In this document: positions 3,574 to 45,691 of the stretch, one piece after another
How positions within the stretch are numbered: position 1 is the first letter of the stretch
Layout of the letters: each line of letters starts with the position of its first letter
IMG/VR virus record: IMGVR_UViG_3300012940_000041
Location: 1 to 45,736 of that record
Strand: one strand, 5' to 3'
Origin: a virus
Lineage: Duplodnaviria > Caudoviricetes
Length of the DNA stretch: 45,736 nt
Translations under genes and position numbers: made by a program
The notes under the pieces: model-generated
What the model was told of the DNA's origin: nothing
What the model saw: only the letters and a program-made list of their open reading frames with translations
The model's database searches: none

Positions 3574-3580
3574 CCCTTAT

Positions 3581-3660
3581 GTAGACAAGCGCAGGGATTG
3601 TAGAGGTCGCCGAAAGGTGGCAGCCCGTAGAGGGTGGGTTCCTCGAACCTGGGGTCTACC
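3581..3660 (+). ncRNA. Putative DUF3800-associated structured RNA
   Basis: Closing stem GTAGAC/GTCTAC; internal hairpins GTCGCC-GAAA-GGTGGC, GCCC-GTAGA-GGGT and GGTTC-CTC-GAACC; next to a DUF3800-like gene. Confidence 0.6.
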
Positions 3661-3666
3661 TCGTTT

Positions 3667-14612: not shown

Positions 14613-14681
14613 AAAATTCCACTACAGGGGTGAAATGGTAAAAAATTCCATCACACCCCTATCTCCAAAAATTCCGCTACA
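14612..14681 (+). repeat. Three AAAAATTCCnnnACA direct repeats
   Basis: Copies at 14612, 14641 and 14667. Confidence 0.6.
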
Positions 14682-14898
14682 CCCTGTCCCGCAGCTCGAA
14701 CTCCGGATGCTGGCCAGCCAGCAGCAATAGCAGCTCATACTCGCCGACCGACAACGCGCGGGAGCTGGCGCCGGCCAGCTCTTTCTTTTTCCAGCCAGAA
14801 AGCGAATAGCCGAAACGTGCTGCGCATTCGTCCTGGTTCAGTCCGGCAGCGATACGCGCAGCGCGAACCTGATCAGGGGTCGGATTAGCATTTGTCAT
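14677..14898 (-). CDS. Aca-like XRE HTH regulator
   Basis: PTPDQVRAARIAAGLNQ HTH, 73 aa, ATGA-coupled to the acrVA2-like gene as last gene of the operon. Confidence 0.75.
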   Translation of the reverse strand: MTNANPTPDQVRAARIAAGLNQDECAARFGYSLSGWKKKELAGASSRALSVGEYELLLLLAGQHPEFELRDRV

Positions 14899-15932
14899 TT
14901 CACGGGTCGGATCGTTGCCGGCAGCCCATCCAAGCCGTCGAGTTTGACTGGAATCGGCGGCAACCAGCGCAAATCGAATTTGCGCTCCTGCGTCGGTATT
15001 TCGCTGCCGTCAGCCCGTTTCATGGGGCCGGATCGGAATCCGTGCCAGTGAGCGCGGCGGATATGCGGCCGCGGCCCGGCATGCATGTCATCACCACCTG
15101 TTTCGGCCTGCTGATATGCGGCGCGCAGTGCAGCCCCGAGGCGTACGCCGACATCCCACGTGGTTGGCCGGTCGGCCGGAAACAGTCTCCAGCCGCGCTT
15201 CGTGCGCTTCGGTTCCGGATTTGACGGCGCGCGCTTCCCGTCGCCGATCTCCGCATTCTGCGAGCAGAGATACAGCAGTAGGGACACCATCGGCTCGACA
15301 TGACTTCTGATCTCTGACGTCAGCCCGGCCGGCGGCGCCCCGATCCCGGCAGCGATTGCATTGATTGACGCGACGTCGACCATGCGCGCGATCGATTCTC
15401 GCAGCGACCACGGGCCCAGGTGCACCGGGATCGGCAGCAGCATGGATTCGGCGTCGATCAACAGCCGCAGCTCAGGCCGGCCGCTGCCGGCGTCGTGCTC
15501 CAGGTGTGCAAAAAATCCGTGGACATCGTCCCCTGCCACCTGCATACCTGGCGTCTCGATGTACACGCACCATTCCGGCAGCCTGAACAGGATCTCGTGC
15601 GGCACATCGCCATCAACAGGGGTTTTGATGATCTCGGCATAGACCGCCGGGTCGAATCGATAGATGCCCTGCGTGACACGCCAGGCAGCCAGGGCGCCGA
15701 GGCGCCCTACGTCGGCCGCGCGATCGAGCGGGACGCGATTGTCGCCGCCACCACTGACAATCGCGTAGGACGCGGCCAGCGGCAGGTAGCACCAGTCCGG
15801 CCAGTGCGGCAGGTCCTGGCCGCGCCCGGCGCGGAATTCGTCGGCGGCTTTCCACGCGCCGAGGTAAAGTTTGGCAGCGGCGACCAAGTGATCGCGCGGG
15901 CGGCAGGGGCGTTTGTCGAACTGGGGTTTCAT
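14895..15932 (-). CDS. acrVA2: AcrVA2/FinQ-family anti-CRISPR protein
   Basis: AWRVTQGIYRFD, LPEWCVYIE, LLLYLC and RPHIRRAHWHGF match the recalled AcrVA2 motifs (AWR.T.GIY, LPDWCVY, LLWLC, RPHIRRGHWHGY). Confidence 0.82.
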   Translation of the reverse strand: MKPQFDKRPCRPRDHLVAAAKLYLGAWKAADEFRAGRGQDLPHWPDWCYLPLAASYAIVSGGGDNRVPLDRAADVGRLGALAAWRVTQGIYRFDPAVYAEIIKTPVDGDVPHEILFRLPEWCVYIETPGMQVAGDDVHGFFAHLEHDAGSGRPELRLLIDAESMLLPIPVHLGPWSLRESIARMVDVASINAIAAGIGAPPAGLTSEIRSHVEPMVSLLLYLCSQNAEIGDGKRAPSNPEPKRTKRGWRLFPADRPTTWDVGVRLGAALRAAYQQAETGGDDMHAGPRPHIRRAHWHGFRSGPMKRADGSEIPTQERKFDLRWLPPIPVKLDGLDGLPATIRPVK

Positions 15933-16727: not shown

Positions 16728-17036
16728 TTAGCTGTAGATGTAGGTGTCTTCGTCATCGTCCAGATGCTGGCGTGACGCACGCACTTCAGCCCAATATTGC
16801 TTCAGCGCTTCGCGGTCGATGTCGATCTTGCCGTCAGCGTTCAGAATGATGAAATCGGGGTTTTCGTCGAGGACATTGCCGAAGGTGTCATCGCCGGCCG
16901 TCAGATCGTCGAGATTCGCAACCGGGAATTTGCGAGTGTCAGTTTGATCCCAGCCGCAATCCTCAAGGTCTACACCGTAGACGGTGTGGCCGGAGCTCGT
17001 GACTTTGTTGGACTTCCAAGCTGCAATGTAGATCAT
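16728..17036 (-). CDS. Small acidic protein, candidate anti-CRISPR
   Basis: 102 aa, 22 D/E versus 9 K/R; AAGGA RBS; first gene after a strong promoter. Confidence 0.75.
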   Translation of the reverse strand: MIYIAAWKSNKVTSSGHTVYGVDLEDCGWDQTDTRKFPVANLDDLTAGDDTFGNVLDENPDFIILNADGKIDIDREALKQYWAEVRASRQHLDDDEDTYIYS

Positions 17037-17108
17037 GATTATTTCCTTTTGAAATTTCTCCGGCTACTCACCACCGGCTGGTGTATCAGCGTTGCGCCGA
17101 TGAAGATA

Positions 17109-17136
17109 ATTATATACGCACAAAATAAGAATGCAA
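17109..17136 (-). promoter_or_regulatory. Promoter of the acr operon with operator
   Basis: TTGCAT-16-TATAAT; near copy of the 19694-19721 promoter. Confidence 0.75.
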
Positions 17137-17141
17137 GGAAT

Positions 17142-17507
17142 TTATCCGCGAGTTGCTGCCAATGCTTGGCGGATACCCTCAGACATATTGCCGTTGCCGA
17201 GCTTTGCTGCCCGCGCCAGGCTCTCGTCATCGAGATACAAGCTTACGCGCCGCCCGCCGACGGTCTTTGGCCGGCCGGCGTTGTTGCTGATGCCAAGCGC
17301 CGCTTTGACGCGCCGCTGGTCGAGCGATGTCACCGCGCCTGCATTGACCATCACGTAGACGCCGGCCTCGGTGCGGGCCAACGCGCCTGTGCGATCGCCC
17401 TGCGAGACGGTCCCGAGCATTTCAGTGCCGGGAGTCGTGTGCTGCGTGTAGAGCCGCCAGTTGCCGGACAAATCGACAGCGAGGCGGTGCCGGTTGTCGT
17501 GACCCAT
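17142..17507 (-). CDS. Protein with C-terminal ribbon-helix-helix domain
   Basis: GRPK...RRVSLYLDDESLARAAKLGNGNMSEGIRQAL; start codon uncertain. Confidence 0.7.
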   Translation of the reverse strand: MGHDNRHRLAVDLSGNWRLYTQHTTPGTEMLGTVSQGDRTGALARTEAGVYVMVNAGAVTSLDQRRVKAALGISNNAGRPKTVGGRRVSLYLDDESLARAAKLGNGNMSEGIRQALAATRG

Positions 17508-17515
17508 GATAATAT
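17507..17515 (+). promoter_or_regulatory. Extended -10 promoter upstream of the solitary repeat
   Basis: TG-A-TAATAT; +1 at ~17522. Confidence 0.5.
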
Positions 17516-17524
17516 TCCCGTGCT

Positions 17525-17552
17525 GTTCGCCCTTCGGGGCGCGGATTGAAAC
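17525..17552 (+). CRISPR. Solitary type I-C-like CRISPR repeat unit
   Basis: GTTCGCCCTTCGGGGCGCGGATTGAAAC: GT start, CGCCC/GGGCG hairpin, GGATTGAAAC 3' end; single copy. Confidence 0.65.
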
Positions 17553-17616
17553 CAAGATTGGGTGGGAAACCCGTTGACATCCTCCCCGGCCTAAAGGCCG
17601 GAGATTCCTACGGCGC

Positions 17617-18840
17617 TCAGTGGAGGCATTGAGCCGCCCCTGAGTCGCTTCGGTGGGTTCCTGCTGCTGGCGGCATTACTGCACCGCTCACTTCACAGGC
17701 GAACCGGGCGTGCCCCGCCCTTAAAACATTGATCGCGCCAACCACGTCGGCGTTTTCCTCGAAGCCGCATTCCACGCACTCGAACTGGGCTTGTGTCTGG
17801 CGGTTGTCCGCTGACACATGGCCGCAGCACGGGCAGGTGCGGCTGGTGTTCTGCGGCGGCACGGCAATGAGCCGGCCGCCCGTCCATGCCAGCTTGTAGT
17901 CCAATTGGCGGCGGAACTCAAACCAGCCTTGATCGAGGATGGACTTGTTCAGGCCGGACTTAGCCCGAACGTTTTTCCCCGGCGTTTCGGTGCTGCCTGC
18001 CGCCGACCTGGACATGTTCCGAACCTGCAAGTCCTCGATACACACCATCGCGTGGTTTTGGCTGATCGCGGTCGAGGTCTTGTGTAGGAAGTCGCGGCGG
18101 GCGTTGCCGATACGGGAGTGAATGCGCTGGACTCGGGCTTTAGCCTTCTTCCAGTTGTTGCTGAATTTGGTTTTGCGGCTCATGGCCTGCTGCGCTTTGC
18201 GCAGGGCCGTTTCATGCTGCTTGAAGCTGTTGAGCGGCGCGTAGAACGTGCCGTCCGAGAGTGTGGCGAAGCGGATCACGCCCATGTCGATACCCACTGC
18301 TGTGGTGGCCTGCGGCACGGCCTGCTCAACTTCGCGCTCGGTCTGGATGCTTACGAACCACTTGCCGCCCGACAGGCTCACGGTAACGTTCTTGACCGTA
18401 CCCAGCACCTTCCGACTATTGCGGTAGCGCAGCCATCCCAGCTTTGGCAGGAAGATACGACTGTTGCCCTGATCGAGCTTGATCTGCTTCGGATCGGGGT
18501 AGCGGAAGCTGTCGCCTTGGCCCTTCTTCTTGAAGCGCGGGAAGTCCGCCCGCTTGGCGAAGAAGTTGCTGTAGGCCCGCTCCAGATCCTTGAGCGCCTG
18601 TTGCAAGGGATGGACCGGCGCATCGGCCAGCCAAGCCATTTCCGCGCTGTTGCGCCACTCGGTGAGTATCTTGCACAGCCCGGCGTAGCCGAGCTTTTTC
18701 TCGCCCTGCTCGTAGCGCTCTTTCTGCAACGCCAACGCCTTGTTGAACACGAACCGGCAGGAGCCAGCGAAACGGCGTATTTGCCGCTCTTGCTGGCCGT
18801 CTGGTCGCAGTTCGTATTTGAAGGCTTGGAGGCGTCGCAT
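17617..18840 (-). CDS. tnpB: RNA-guided endonuclease TnpB
   Basis: AFKYELRP HTH, RuvC GIDMG / IEDL / NADVVGA all intact, CPCC..CVEC zinc finger. Confidence 0.96.
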   Translation of the reverse strand: MRRLQAFKYELRPDGQQERQIRRFAGSCRFVFNKALALQKERYEQGEKKLGYAGLCKILTEWRNSAEMAWLADAPVHPLQQALKDLERAYSNFFAKRADFPRFKKKGQGDSFRYPDPKQIKLDQGNSRIFLPKLGWLRYRNSRKVLGTVKNVTVSLSGGKWFVSIQTEREVEQAVPQATTAVGIDMGVIRFATLSDGTFYAPLNSFKQHETALRKAQQAMSRKTKFSNNWKKAKARVQRIHSRIGNARRDFLHKTSTAISQNHAMVCIEDLQVRNMSRSAAGSTETPGKNVRAKSGLNKSILDQGWFEFRRQLDYKLAWTGGRLIAVPPQNTSRTCPCCGHVSADNRQTQAQFECVECGFEENADVVGAINVLRAGHARFACEVSGAVMPPAAGTHRSDSGAAQCLH

Positions 18841-18861
18841 GCGGATATTATAATTTGGCCT

Positions 18862-19275
18862 ATGAGCGACGACAACGATATTAGGCATGGACGGCACTGC
18901 GTTTTTAAGATGCATGTCCATTTGGTCTTTGTGGCGAAATATCGCCGCAGAGTGTTCGATGGCCCGGCCATTGATACCCTGCGCGGCATCTTCGCCAAGG
19001 TCTGCGCCGACTTCGAGGCTAGCCTGATCGAGATGGACGGCGAGGACGATCATGTTCATCTTCTGGTTGAGTATCCGCCGAAGGTGGCGGTGTCGAATCT
19101 GGTAAACAGCCTCAAGGGCGTATCCAGCCGCCTGCTGCGCAAGGAACGGCCCGACATCCAGAAACGCTACTGGAACGGGGTACTGTGGTCGCCGTCCTAC
19201 TTCGCCTCAAGCTGTGGTGGAGCGCCGATTTCCATCGTGCGCCAGTACATCGAACAGCAGCAGACTCCACACTGA
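18862..19275 (+). CDS. tnpA: IS200/IS605 Y1 transposase
   Basis: HLVFVAKYRR, DHVHLL (HUH), KGVSSR, WSPSYF, YIEQQ. Confidence 0.97.
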   Translation: MSDDNDIRHGRHCVFKMHVHLVFVAKYRRRVFDGPAIDTLRGIFAKVCADFEASLIEMDGEDDHVHLLVEYPPKVAVSNLVNSLKGVSSRLLRKERPDIQKRYWNGVLWSPSYFASSCGGAPISIVRQYIEQQQTPH

Positions 19276-19348
19276 AGCCCAAGGACGGCTACGCCGTCCG
19301 CGCTATCCTTCCCCGCCCTGAACGGCGGGGCTTGTCGCGCACCCGGTC

Positions 19349-19380
19349 AAAAAAGGGCGCTTCGGCGCCCTTTTTGTTTT
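19349..19380. terminator. Bidirectional terminator
   Basis: AAAAAAGGGCGC-TTCG-GCGCCCTTTTT. Confidence 0.8.
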
Positions 19381-19630
19381 AGTCGGGCAGTGCGAACAAC
19401 ACTTTAGCGGTCGAGCCGAAGCGGAACGCCTCGCCATCGCGTTGTGCGGCGCGCACTGCGCTGCGCACCAAGTCAACTTTGGTCACCGCCTCGCCGAACA
19501 GATCTTGTTTGCCGAGCTGTGAGCGTTGAGACTCCGGCAGCAGGCCGAACACGATTTCTGCGACCGCTTGCTCCGCTGCCGCAGCGGTGGACTTGTTCAG
19601 GGTGACGAGGTCGGATGCGATGACGTTCAT
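19379..19630 (-). CDS. Hypothetical protein (83 aa), candidate anti-defence factor
   Basis: GGAG RBS, own strong promoter and terminator. Confidence 0.7.
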   Translation of the reverse strand: MNVIASDLVTLNKSTAAAAEQAVAEIVFGLLPESQRSQLGKQDLFGEAVTKVDLVRSAVRAAQRDGEAFRFGSTAKVLFALPD

Positions 19631-19693
19631 GGTTTTCTCCACCCCTGATTACCGCGAGGTGCCGGTTGACCGTTGTGGTCTGTTGATGTGGTA

Positions 19694-19721
19694 ATTATAT
19701 GCGCATAATTTTAGATTGCAA
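19694..19721 (-). promoter_or_regulatory. Strong leftward promoter with palindromic operator TATGCGCATA
   Basis: TTGCAA-16-TATAAT; palindrome at 19698-19707. Confidence 0.75.
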
Positions 19722-19753
19722 GAACTATTTGATGTGGCGCTTGGAATTTTTTC

Positions 19754-23875: not shown

Positions 23876-24057
23876 ATATCAGAGTTTTCAATGTATGCCT
23901 GCTGCTCGGCTGGATCATGGTGCTGGCCGGTGGGGTGATGCTCAACCCTGGTTGGGGAGTCGCCTTTGCAGGCGGTTTGTTAATCGTCCTGACCCTCTCT
24001 GCTGCGTACATCGCAGGCTGGGAGCAGCCGAAGCGCAACAAGGAAGAGACTGACTGA
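23872..24057 (+). CDS. Small membrane protein
   Basis: Two TM helices between terL and portal, coupled. Confidence 0.7.
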   Translation: MNIRVFNVCLLLGWIMVLAGGVMLNPGWGVAFAGGLLIVLTLSAAYIAGWEQPKRNKEETD

Positions 24058-26669
24058 TGTTCATCAGCAGCATTCGATCGGAGGCGGACGACCGTTCGCC
24101 GGCTGGTCGCTTTTGGTTCGAGCCGATCGGCATGCGCACGGCTGCCGGTGTGCGAGTAACCCCGGCGTCTGCCATGGCGCTCCCGGCTGTGTTCGCGTGC
24201 GTTCGCGTACTCGCGGAATCGTTCGCGATCATGCCGTTCATGTTGTACCGCCCGAACGAAAACGGCGGCCGTGCGAAGGTGCGAAATCACTGGTTGTATC
24301 GTCTGATTGCCAAGGCACCAAACCGGTTTCAGTCGCCCTACGAGTGGCGACTGATGATGCAGGGGCATCTCGCGCTGCGCGGCAACGCGTTCAACCAAAT
24401 CACGGCGAATAGTCGAGGAGAGATTACAGAGCTACTACCGCTGCACCCGGACAGAATGTCCGTCGAAATGCTGTCGAACGGTAGCTATCGGTACGTCTAT
24501 CTCGACCAGGACGGACGTTCCATCACGTACAGCAGGCACGAAATCTGGCACCTACGGGGCATGAGTGATGACGGCCTGATGGGCATGAGCCCGATCGGCT
24601 TGGCGCGCGAAGCAATAGGCGAGGGTCTGGCGATCCAGTCCTATTCCAGCCGATTCTTCACGAATGACGCAAAGCCGGGTGGCGGATGGATCGAGTATCC
24701 CGGGTCTTTTGCGACGAACGAGGCAAAGAAAAAGTTCCGCGAGTCCTGGCAGGAGCTGCAGGGCGGATCGAACCGCGGGAAGGTCGCGGTGCTCGAGAAG
24801 GGCATGAAGTTCCATGAGCTCGGCTTGTCGAACAAAGACAGTCAGTTCATTGAGGCTCGGGGCGCAAAGGTCACCGAGATTGCCCGGATTTTCCGCGTGC
24901 CGCCGCACAAGATCATGGATCTGGCACGGTGCATGCCGGGCGACACACTCGTCTTTACCAGCACCGGGCCAAAGCCGATCGCCAGCGTGCTCCCAGGCGA
25001 GAAGGTATGGAGTCCGACTCCGACCGGGCCGAAGCTCTGCACAGTGCTGAACAACTGGTATAACGGCGTGCGCGAGACGCTGGAGATTCGCACCACGAAC
25101 CGGACAGTCCGATGCACAGCAAATCACCGACTGCTGGTGCGCCGCGCCCACGAACGCGACCTAAATCCTGGCGAAACCGGTGGGAAGAACGTCGGCGGAA
25201 AGAAGAAGCGCGTGGTTTGGCGTAATGAATATGTGATGGCGGGAGAGCTGCGCGAGGGCGATACTCTCGTGACGCTCGATCGACTGCCTAGCCAAGGCCG
25301 CACCATCTCGCCCACCGGTCGCGTTCTGACCGAGGGGTTCATGGAGTTCGCCGGTCTGCTGATGGCGGACGGCAATGTGAAGTACCAGAATGGAAAGCCA
25401 TCGCACGTGTCCATTGCGCGCGCAGACACTGCCAGTTACATGCCGCATTATCGCCATGTTATGCGCTCGGAATTCACGCGCTGTGCCACCGGTGGAATTT
25501 ACGCATCGGCGTCTCCGCTGCGAGCACCTGTTCATTTGACGGAGGGTGCGAGGTGCACGATCTTCGCGTCGGTTGAAGAGGCGGGCGCGTTGTTCAAAAT
25601 GGGATTTGCCGGGACCGCTTTCACGAAACGCATACCCGGCTGGGTGTTCGAGACGAGCGAGGATCACCGCCTCGCCTTCTTGCGCGGATTCCTTGATGGC
25701 GACGGAACCGTCGATGCGAAGGGTCGGATCACGTACTACTCCGCGAACAAGGCGCTACTGGATGACGTGCGTCATCTGTGCATGAGTGCTGGCGTTCCTG
25801 TGACGAACGTGCGGTCTGACGTGAATCGCAAACCGGCGCCAGGATCGAAGCATTTGGTGCCAACGCGGATGTGGCGCTTCACATGTTCAGATCCTGGCGC
25901 GAATGCGCGCATCGGATCCCACGACGCTCGGTACATCGAGCGCCTACAGTCTGGCAAACCGTTCGGGCGCAAGGACCGGGCTTATCCGCGATTCGGCGGA
26001 AAGAACTTCGCCGCACCAGGTCTCGCACTTTCGCGAATCATTAGCATTGAGAAGTGCCCCGCAGAAGCCGTATATGACATCGAGGTAGAGGGTGAGCACT
26101 GCTTCTTTGCCGACGGTGTTGCATCGCACAACAGCACCAACAACAACATCGAGCATCAGGGTATCGAGTTCTGGACTGACACGATGTTGCCGTGGGCGAC
26201 GCTGTGGGAATCCTCGATCGGATTCTTCCTGCTCGGTCCGGACGAGGACCTGGAGCCGGATTTTGATCACAAGCCGATGATGCGCGGCGATGGCCAGGCC
26301 AGAGCCGAACGAATCAGCAAACTTGTTACTGCGGGCGTGATGACGCGGAACGAAGGCCGGGAGGAAGAGGGGTACGACCCGATCGATGGACTGGATGAAC
26401 CGCTGCGCCCGTTGAACATGGTGAGCGAAGACGTTGCCGACGATACTGAGGATCAATCGAGCTCTGCACGGATGCGCGCGCTGCTGCACAGCAATGCGTC
26501 TCGCATGGCTCGGCGCCTCGCTGCCGGCAAGCCGGTATCTGCCGAGACGCTGGCCGACGCCTTGGCCATCAGCACCCCGTGCGCAGATTCCTGGCTTTCG
26601 CTCGACCGAACCGGCCTCACTGAAGATGAACTGACCGCCTCCCTATTGGAGCTTGGAGAAACCGCATGA
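24057..26669 (+). CDS. HK97-family portal protein containing an intein
   Basis: AVFACVRVLAES, LRGNAF, GMSPI, EIARIFRVPPH, MTRNEGR. Confidence 0.95.
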   Translation: MFISSIRSEADDRSPAGRFWFEPIGMRTAAGVRVTPASAMALPAVFACVRVLAESFAIMPFMLYRPNENGGRAKVRNHWLYRLIAKAPNRFQSPYEWRLMMQGHLALRGNAFNQITANSRGEITELLPLHPDRMSVEMLSNGSYRYVYLDQDGRSITYSRHEIWHLRGMSDDGLMGMSPIGLAREAIGEGLAIQSYSSRFFTNDAKPGGGWIEYPGSFATNEAKKKFRESWQELQGGSNRGKVAVLEKGMKFHELGLSNKDSQFIEARGAKVTEIARIFRVPPHKIMDLARCMPGDTLVFTSTGPKPIASVLPGEKVWSPTPTGPKLCTVLNNWYNGVRETLEIRTTNRTVRCTANHRLLVRRAHERDLNPGETGGKNVGGKKKRVVWRNEYVMAGELREGDTLVTLDRLPSQGRTISPTGRVLTEGFMEFAGLLMADGNVKYQNGKPSHVSIARADTASYMPHYRHVMRSEFTRCATGGIYASASPLRAPVHLTEGARCTIFASVEEAGALFKMGFAGTAFTKRIPGWVFETSEDHRLAFLRGFLDGDGTVDAKGRITYYSANKALLDDVRHLCMSAGVPVTNVRSDVNRKPAPGSKHLVPTRMWRFTCSDPGANARIGSHDARYIERLQSGKPFGRKDRAYPRFGGKNFAAPGLALSRIISIEKCPAEAVYDIEVEGEHCFFADGVASHNSTNNNIEHQGIEFWTDTMLPWATLWESSIGFFLLGPDEDLEPDFDHKPMMRGDGQARAERISKLVTAGVMTRNEGREEEGYDPIDGLDEPLRPLNMVSEDVADDTEDQSSSARMRALLHSNASRMARRLAAGKPVSAETLADALAISTPCADSWLSLDRTGLTEDELTASLLELGETA
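24930..26132 (+). mobile_element. Intein with LAGLIDADG homing endonuclease (401 aa)
   Basis: R|CMPGDT, TANHRLL block B, FAGLLMADG and FLRGFLDGDG, VYDIEV...SHN|S. Confidence 0.95.

Positions 26670-45613: not shown

Positions 45614-45691
<78 letters not shown>

Follow-up and report, generated by a model that had tools for sequence, protein, structure and literature searches.

What a single CRISPR repeat might do in a phage genome that carries neither an array nor cas genes is the question raised by a locus in the window analysed here, the whole 45,736-nt stretch of a viral record. In this locus a promoter-like motif is followed by one short repeat resembling those of type I-C arrays, and an IS605-family element separates the repeat from a GC hairpin. 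The sequence-only reading had regarded the unit as a self-promoted crRNA mimic, either an RNA anti-CRISPR (Racr) or a mini-guide redirecting the host Cascade, paired with protein Acrs.

The accessory island and the layout of the unit

The window is a 45.7-kb record of a lambda-like soil phage or prophage that encodes portal, HK97 capsid, tape measure and DnaB proteins, and its terminase is nearest to those of Burkholderia phages (78%). The portal gene (24057-26669; 870 aa) gives a protein with two portal stretches and, to judge from sequence motifs, presumably holds an intein with a homing-endonuclease-like part; a DUF3800-VII RNA is found at 3580-3665, and a tRNA at 45617-45690, at the contig end, is possibly an attachment site. 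The repeat locus lies within a minus-strand accessory island with a Q-like gene on one side and packaging genes on the other. On that strand the island encodes a 345-aa protein of the AcrVA2/FinQ family (14895-15932), which has an HxR motif and matches 7ci1 (E 9.8e-16), and a 73-aa HTH protein (14677-14898) that is weakly Aca10-like, with a weak match to PDB 7xi5 (E 6.8e-4), a code occurring once in the Aca10 structure paper. The homologue of a validated Acr and the Aca-like regulator together form the combination by which acr-aca islands are recognised, and "anti-CRISPR island" seems from the gene sequences a reasonable name for the region, though no I-C Acr protein was identified in it. According to bioRxiv 2022.11.29.518452, most members of the AcrVA2 family occur in the absence of Cas12a, and the family may act on something else.

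Two orphan genes on the minus strand, one of 83 aa (19379-19630; TTGCAA-16-TATAAT) and an acidic one of 102 aa (16728-17036), each have a strong promoter in front, the two promoters being alike in design; both genes are Acr candidates by position only. These near-identical minus-strand promoters (17101-17150 and 19686-19735) have an operator-like motif in common, which also occurs upstream in L001 and L002, two loci considered below. A third small gene encodes a 121-aa phage protein (17142-17507, minus strand) with a beta-rich N-domain and a likely ribbon-helix-helix C-domain, the latter taken here as a lead. No relatives of the 83-aa and 102-aa proteins were found in the searches run, fold and atlas searches gave no function for the orphan proteins, and none of the 83-, 102- and 121-aa proteins matched any solved Acr. 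For the 121-aa protein no fold match was obtained and single-protein scans were without result; an alignment search recovered homologues of its gene in 3 viral loci and in 13 of 401 genomes. Another protein of the island, of 255 aa, has eight relatives, none of them named. The proposed setting in an anti-CRISPR island is supported by the AcrVA2 homologue and the weak Aca10-like gene; a pairing with I-C Acr proteins is not supported, the small genes having no relatives. The scanned ORFs (sets of 41, 7 and 12, partly overlapping) contained no cas gene, in agreement with what had been said of the window, and the sole Cas-related protein among them is TnpB.

The unit itself begins with an extended -10 promoter-like motif (17507-17515, plus strand), with a predicted start near 17522, that overlaps the start codon and the AT-rich start of the minus-strand 121-aa gene. 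A sigma-70 scan did not call this motif because it has no -35 element; TGnTAnnnT sites with at least four of six matches are nevertheless rare, numbering only 5 in 91,472 strand positions. The 28-nt repeat, recognised by motif search, folding and Rfam alignment, follows at 17525-17552 (plus strand) and consists of a 5-bp stem (17528-17532/17537-17541), a UUCG loop and an 11-nt handle (17542-17552), with the Cas5c cut predicted at 17541/17542; a stem arm plus the 16-nt repeat end was matched once in the window as against 0 times in 100 shuffles. The GC hairpin with its UUCG loop and U tract (19355-19380, plus strand; hairpin proper 19355-19370) was called by a terminator scan and has a folding z of -5.25. 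As it is flanked by A6 before and U6 after and lies 8 nt beyond the stop of the 83-aa gene, the hairpin is predicted to be a two-way intrinsic terminator, able to end transcripts of both strands. Motif, repeat and hairpin were each found where the sequence-only reading had placed them (from 17507, 17525 and 19355) and occur once in the window. The compact order of repeat, 30-nt pseudo-spacer and terminator, known from Cracr RNAs, is present after removal of the IS only; the parts of the RNA proposed earlier are real, and its joined form is a reconstruction from the two flanks, the IS-free allele itself not having been seen. In this reconstruction the pseudo-spacer comprises 17553-17573 and 19346-19354 on the plus strand: the minus strand of the first 21 nt is the predicted guide of the TnpB omega-RNA, and the last 9 nt contain the TAM (19346-19349) and a stretch of A that, read on the minus strand, gives the terminator there its U tract.

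Identity of the repeat and related short-stem repeats

Burkholderiales genomes in which one of the phage genes has a homologue (4 of 151) stood in for the host as its putative kin. Among 401 relatives of the proxy genome, 31 have Cas5c, and 21 of the 31 I-C loci have arrays, with a 37-nt repeat in 17 and a 32-nt form in 4. The CGCCC/GGGCG stem base of the window repeat recurs in 14 of the seventeen 37-nt repeats, and a handle starting with C, as in the window, in 4 of them. Judged by this sequence comparison, the phage unit is the 37-nt Burkholderiales I-C repeat with the variable 14-nt stem apex swapped for UUCG and with the base and the 11-nt handle kept. The 5′ lead, the stem base and the handle are also common to the Rfam family CRISPR-DR9 (RF01322), from which the window repeat differs in being a single copy with the apical 14 nt reduced to 4; the alignment, in which the apex falls from 12 to 4 nt, reaches 21.7 bits (E 0.02), below the gathering score of 45. 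DR9-type arrays adjoin cas3-cas5c-cas8c-cas7, and two named genomes have long-stem repeats of this kind next to complete I-C operons. The 37-nt arrays, the CRISPR-DR9 alignment and the intact Cas5c determinants together bear out the type I-C identity assigned earlier. At one further locus, L253, a solitary degenerate repeat lies between cas3 and cas5c, 79 nt upstream of cas5c, and is a CreR candidate.

In PMC8524198 and PMC5965381, Cas5c is described as reading the stem base and the 3′ overhang, cutting at the base and leaving an 11-nt handle, and changes in the loop did not stop it. The parts kept in the phage repeat are therefore the parts that the enzyme reads, so that the structure used in processing, stem base plus 11-nt handle, is retained as expected of a Racr or solitary repeat unit (SRU). 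BhaCas5c favours UGG after the cut (same papers); the window handle starts with CGG, as do natural arrays. A 5-bp stem closed by a tetraloop, as a putative Cas5c substrate, is without precedent in the literature covered here.

A search with the short-stem pattern returned 14 viral loci, several of them near-duplicates. In all of them (14 of 14) the free position of the handle is T or C, and in most (12 of 14) TC precedes the stem, neither being demanded by the pattern. L055, L047 and the prophage-like L206 show a -10 box, then the short repeat and, after 26-35 nt, a terminator hairpin, and L055 is also antisense to small genes with which it has a common terminator; the remaining 12 viral loci lack at least one of these features or, as four near-duplicates, were left unfolded. 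The acr context of such analogue loci is defined here by gene size and layout, and the neighbours of the L055-type loci gave no match to a named Acr family in PHROGs or Pfam. Since the same layout occurs in three unrelated phage or prophage loci, the stand-alone transcription unit, which had been called unusual, is better seen as a recurring design; its own promoter has a counterpart in RacrIF1 and its order of parts in CracrVA1, as discussed below. In the related prophages L048, L050 and L052-L054, a short-stem I-C repeat lies between small acidic genes beside an integrase. An identification of the L048-L054 loci as RacrIC1 was dropped, the published primers giving a different sequence.

The short repeat had 37 hits in genomes, 9 of which are odd copies within arrays and 10 of which are the ends of a conserved ~110-nt module by housekeeping genes, outside any acr context. 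This module is a dispersed chromosomal element of beta- and gamma-proteobacteria (Thiothrix, Thiofilum, Rhodoferax, Accumulibacter and Azoarcus; loci L193, L195, L197, L199, L201, L203, L214, L215, L217 and L218, and G009 and G004) that is built of a degenerate handle, two hairpins and then the short DR9-like repeat end. It has 42 and 29 matches in two genomes and changes on both sides in 9 of 26 pairs; no Rfam family matches it, and it may be a non-autonomous mobile element. One copy lies inside an atypical operon of Thiofilum flexile (L252:8900-17350), which consists of a 991-aa gene, a Csc2/Cas7-like gene, a 210-aa gene and a Cas3′-like helicase gene, followed by tnpB. Elsewhere, in a Desulfovibrio MAG (L188:2900-3110), two short-stem repeats and a terminator directly follow a reverse transcriptase gene.

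One possibility is that the phage unit is a captured remnant of this dispersed element with no anti-CRISPR role, and that the hairpin belongs to the 83-aa gene as its terminator. The frequency with which the short repeat ends the module would suit such an origin, as would the tolerance of the IS insertion and the resemblance of the rebuilt pseudo-spacer to the second hairpin of the module, which was noticed post hoc and is reached by 6 of 1,500 real spacers and 8 of 1,500 shuffles (p about 0.005). However, the upstream part of the module is missing in the phage unit, the order of the parts would need permuting, the rare extended -10 motif stands at the right distance from the repeat, and the promoter-repeat-terminator layout also exists in unrelated phage loci, all of which make a captured remnant improbable.

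The IS605-family element

Plasmid copies of the element align with the window from 17574 onward, other near-identical copies with different flanks in four runs cease to match the window ahead of 17574 and beyond 19349, and the plasmid copies L039 and L042 have the same four letters beside the left end as the window. These alignments and the four kept letters place the IS at 17574-19345, with the right end at 17574, the left end at 19345 and the TAM TGAC on the minus strand, and so corroborate the boundaries given by the sequence-only reading. Within them lie tnpA (18862-19275, plus strand), identified by protein scan as a Y1 HUH transposase gene of 137 aa, and the open frame of tnpB (17617-18840, minus strand; 407 aa), in which three acidic motifs of RuvC type are present. 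A Y1 tnpA together with tnpB, hairpin ends, a conserved TAM and the same ends with other flanks characterise the IS605 group and are all present. Divergent tnpA and tnpB, hairpin ends, TAM-side insertion and a guide from the right flank are likewise described in bioRxiv 10.1101/2023.03.14.532601, and the element itself is no different from known members of the family, only its landing site being notable.

That preprint also describes insertion without target duplication and scarless excision for IS605-type elements, which makes joining the two flanks a sound reconstruction of an IS-free unit that was never observed. Searches for IS-free alleles or homologues in related phages and prophages, as the earlier reading had advised, found none in viral contigs, annotated phages and 351 genomes, nor in the 125 metagenome loci examined of about 410 estimated stretches, and the contigs of the runs examined contained no IS-skipping joint. 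Run X1, which may be the source sample, spans both junctions with the IS present; three RNA runs, in which the phage itself may be absent, cover the IS only and give no information on expression of the unit. In folding, the repeat stem has pair probabilities of 0.62-0.92 without the IS and 0.76-0.88 with it. With the IS in place, 21 nt of the spacer are retained, the terminator is now 1.8 kb off, and the RNA would enter the TnpB guide RNA gene in antisense.

Under the published rule that the TnpB guide derives from the right flank (bioRxiv 10.1101/2023.03.14.532601), the guide would be the antisense of 17553-17573, and TnpB would therefore cut the IS-free allele. Because this holds for any IS605 insertion, we read it as an accident and not a device, and the IS is most likely an accidental passenger. 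A more far-reaching proposal is that trimmed I-C repeats are an overlooked class of stand-alone phage decoy RNA genes, missed by searches for repeats, and that a TnpB element has here made one of them a guarded switch, excision restoring the RNA and TnpB, with its guide antisense to the pseudo-spacer, cutting sister phages with an intact gene; we consider it improbable. As further observations on the element, its right end (17573-17607, minus strand), the 3′ end of the TnpB guide scaffold, gives a weak CRISPR-DR9 alignment (E 1.5), and 17561-17722 (minus strand) matches HgcC (E 2e-4), so that there is an HgcC-like match in the TnpB guide RNA gene. The same five letters are found just outside the right end (17569-17573) and just inside the left end (19341-19345), which could be due to chance or to extra pairing when the target is chosen.

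Decoy, guide or regulator

The repeat keeps the I-C stem base and handle, and its link to the terminator is broken by the IS. The unit is a real, non-random mimic of a type I-C repeat, currently interrupted, and our preferred explanation, which we hold to be probable without being confident of it, is that this lone apex-trimmed repeat, organised like a small RNA gene of the phage, acts as a Racr-like RNA anti-CRISPR decoy with the IS605 element in its 3′ half. In its favour are the non-random match, the kept Cas5c determinants, the recurrence of the layout in L055, L047 and L206, the AcrVA2 homologue and Aca10-like gene close by, and the predicted folding of the stem with and without the IS. 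In this mechanism an RNA of about 85 nt would start near 17522 and would be cut at the stem base by the host Cas5c, and the handle would draw Cas5c, Cas7 and Cas8c into assemblies that lack a useful guide, leaving less working Cascade. In the present allele the stem should still fold, so that some decoy activity may remain, with the nearby terminator lost; scarless excision by TnpA could bring the gene back, and the site formed in this way would be a target of TnpB.

Comparison with published Racrs is consistent with such a role. Like them, the window repeat is solitary and intergenic on a mobile element, has no array or cas genes and lies near acr-type genes, and RacrIF1 too has its own promoter (Camara-Wilpert et al. 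2023, PMC10651486). It differs in being 28 nt long with a 5-bp stem where Racr repeats are near full-length, in being antisense to the acr genes where RacrIC1 is co-transcribed with acrIC5 (same source), and in being split by an IS. SRUFinder requires 90% or more identity and coverage relative to a known repeat and a score of 41.1 bits or higher; the best values for the window repeat, compared with 89 array repeats assembled for this analysis in place of the published database, were 38.2 bits and 51% coverage. A Racr-like working is thus what we infer for a repeat that lies below the published sequence thresholds, and a search by those rules would miss the trimmed form. In the literature searched, with most subscription journals outside reach, neither a trimmed I-C Racr nor an IS605 element within a Racr is described.

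Another possibility is a guide of the Cracr type. Once processed, its RNA would join the I-C Cascade of the host and repress the promoter of a cas gene or of CreT by means of a brief match next to the PAM, for which the 21 nt left before the IS would remain available. The unit has the same components as Cracr RNAs, a repeat-like part, a short spacer-like part and an intrinsic terminator beside acr genes; CracrVA1 is one repeat, spacer and terminator, and type I-C members of the group have been predicted (Liu et al., bioRxiv 10.1101/2024.10.29.618823), with CreR-like elements reported at I-C loci (bioRxiv 2023.03.10.532045). The 30-nt spacer is also shorter than the 34-35 nt of DR9-type arrays, and since matches of 9-10 nt suffice, a target in an unsampled host could be missed. 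For the target searches TTC was taken as the I-C PAM. The comparison with cas promoters that had been suggested gave 12 seed matches of at least 9 positions in a sample of 33 I-C loci (439 kb), and none of the 12 was flanked by TTC. A TTC plus 11-nt seed was matched in 4 of 301 genomes as against 17 control matches, all four within long ORFs; among 125 metagenome loci (19 of 64 parts scanned), more than 9 seed positions were shared by the window's own record only, and the window has no self-target. In contrast to Cracrs, neither a PAM-flanked target nor a matching host CreR was found for the unit in these samples, and folding predicts for its rebuilt spacer an 8-bp hairpin that covers the seed and crosses the IS junction, a fold matched in strength by 3.5% of 1,500 real spacers. 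The lack of a target in the sampled loci and genomes and the predicted self-pairing of the spacer favour the decoy over the guide, which we regard as unlikely, if the least so of the alternatives to the decoy. Of the two roles first proposed, the Racr is the likelier, with its I-C mimicry and kept Cas5c determinants, and the mini-guide recedes.

The decoy reading had been expected to go with conservation of the repeat at homologous loci, which was not seen, an outcome that counts against it. At L001, L002, L259 and L260, where the N-terminal part of the 121-aa gene has a homologue in full, there is no repeat upstream of that homologue, 35 loci around AcrVA2-like genes have no repeat with the stem, and no homologous RNA gene was found in viral contigs, metagenome loci or 351 genomes. 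The absence at homologous loci shows no sign of conservation and fits a cassette gained in this lineage. Nor did a set of 3,425 spacers contain a convincing phage match, the best full-seed hit being 24 of 26 nt in a conserved ssb region, and the low share of proxy relatives with Cas5c, 31 in 401, likewise speaks against the decoy.

The same neighbourhood raises the possibility of a cis or antisense regulator, in which transcription of the minus-strand operon would be attenuated by the cassette, whose promoter would also disturb expression of the putative 121-aa regulator, Cas5c cleavage being a possible sensor. The placement of the terminator 8 nt past the 83-aa gene and of the -10 motif over the start codon of the 121-aa gene would suit such regulation, and L001 and L002 have no such cassette, a small gene there leading directly into the 121-aa homologue. 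The exact I-C handle, however, is left unexplained by cis regulation unless Cas proteins have a role, a promoter scan found no promoter for the 121-aa gene within the cassette, and the identity of the 121-aa protein as a regulator is a lead; we rate this as the least likely of the explanations considered.

The principle of an RNA anti-CRISPR decoy is already published, and the trimmed form seen here is a variant of it. If the decoy is active, a repeat of 28 nt, pared down to the stem base and the handle, would suffice to engage the type I-C Cascade, a minimal Cas5c substrate would be defined, and published SRU searches would undercount RNA anti-CRISPRs. With and without its IS, the locus gives a natural pair of alleles by which decoy activity could be separated from guide activity.
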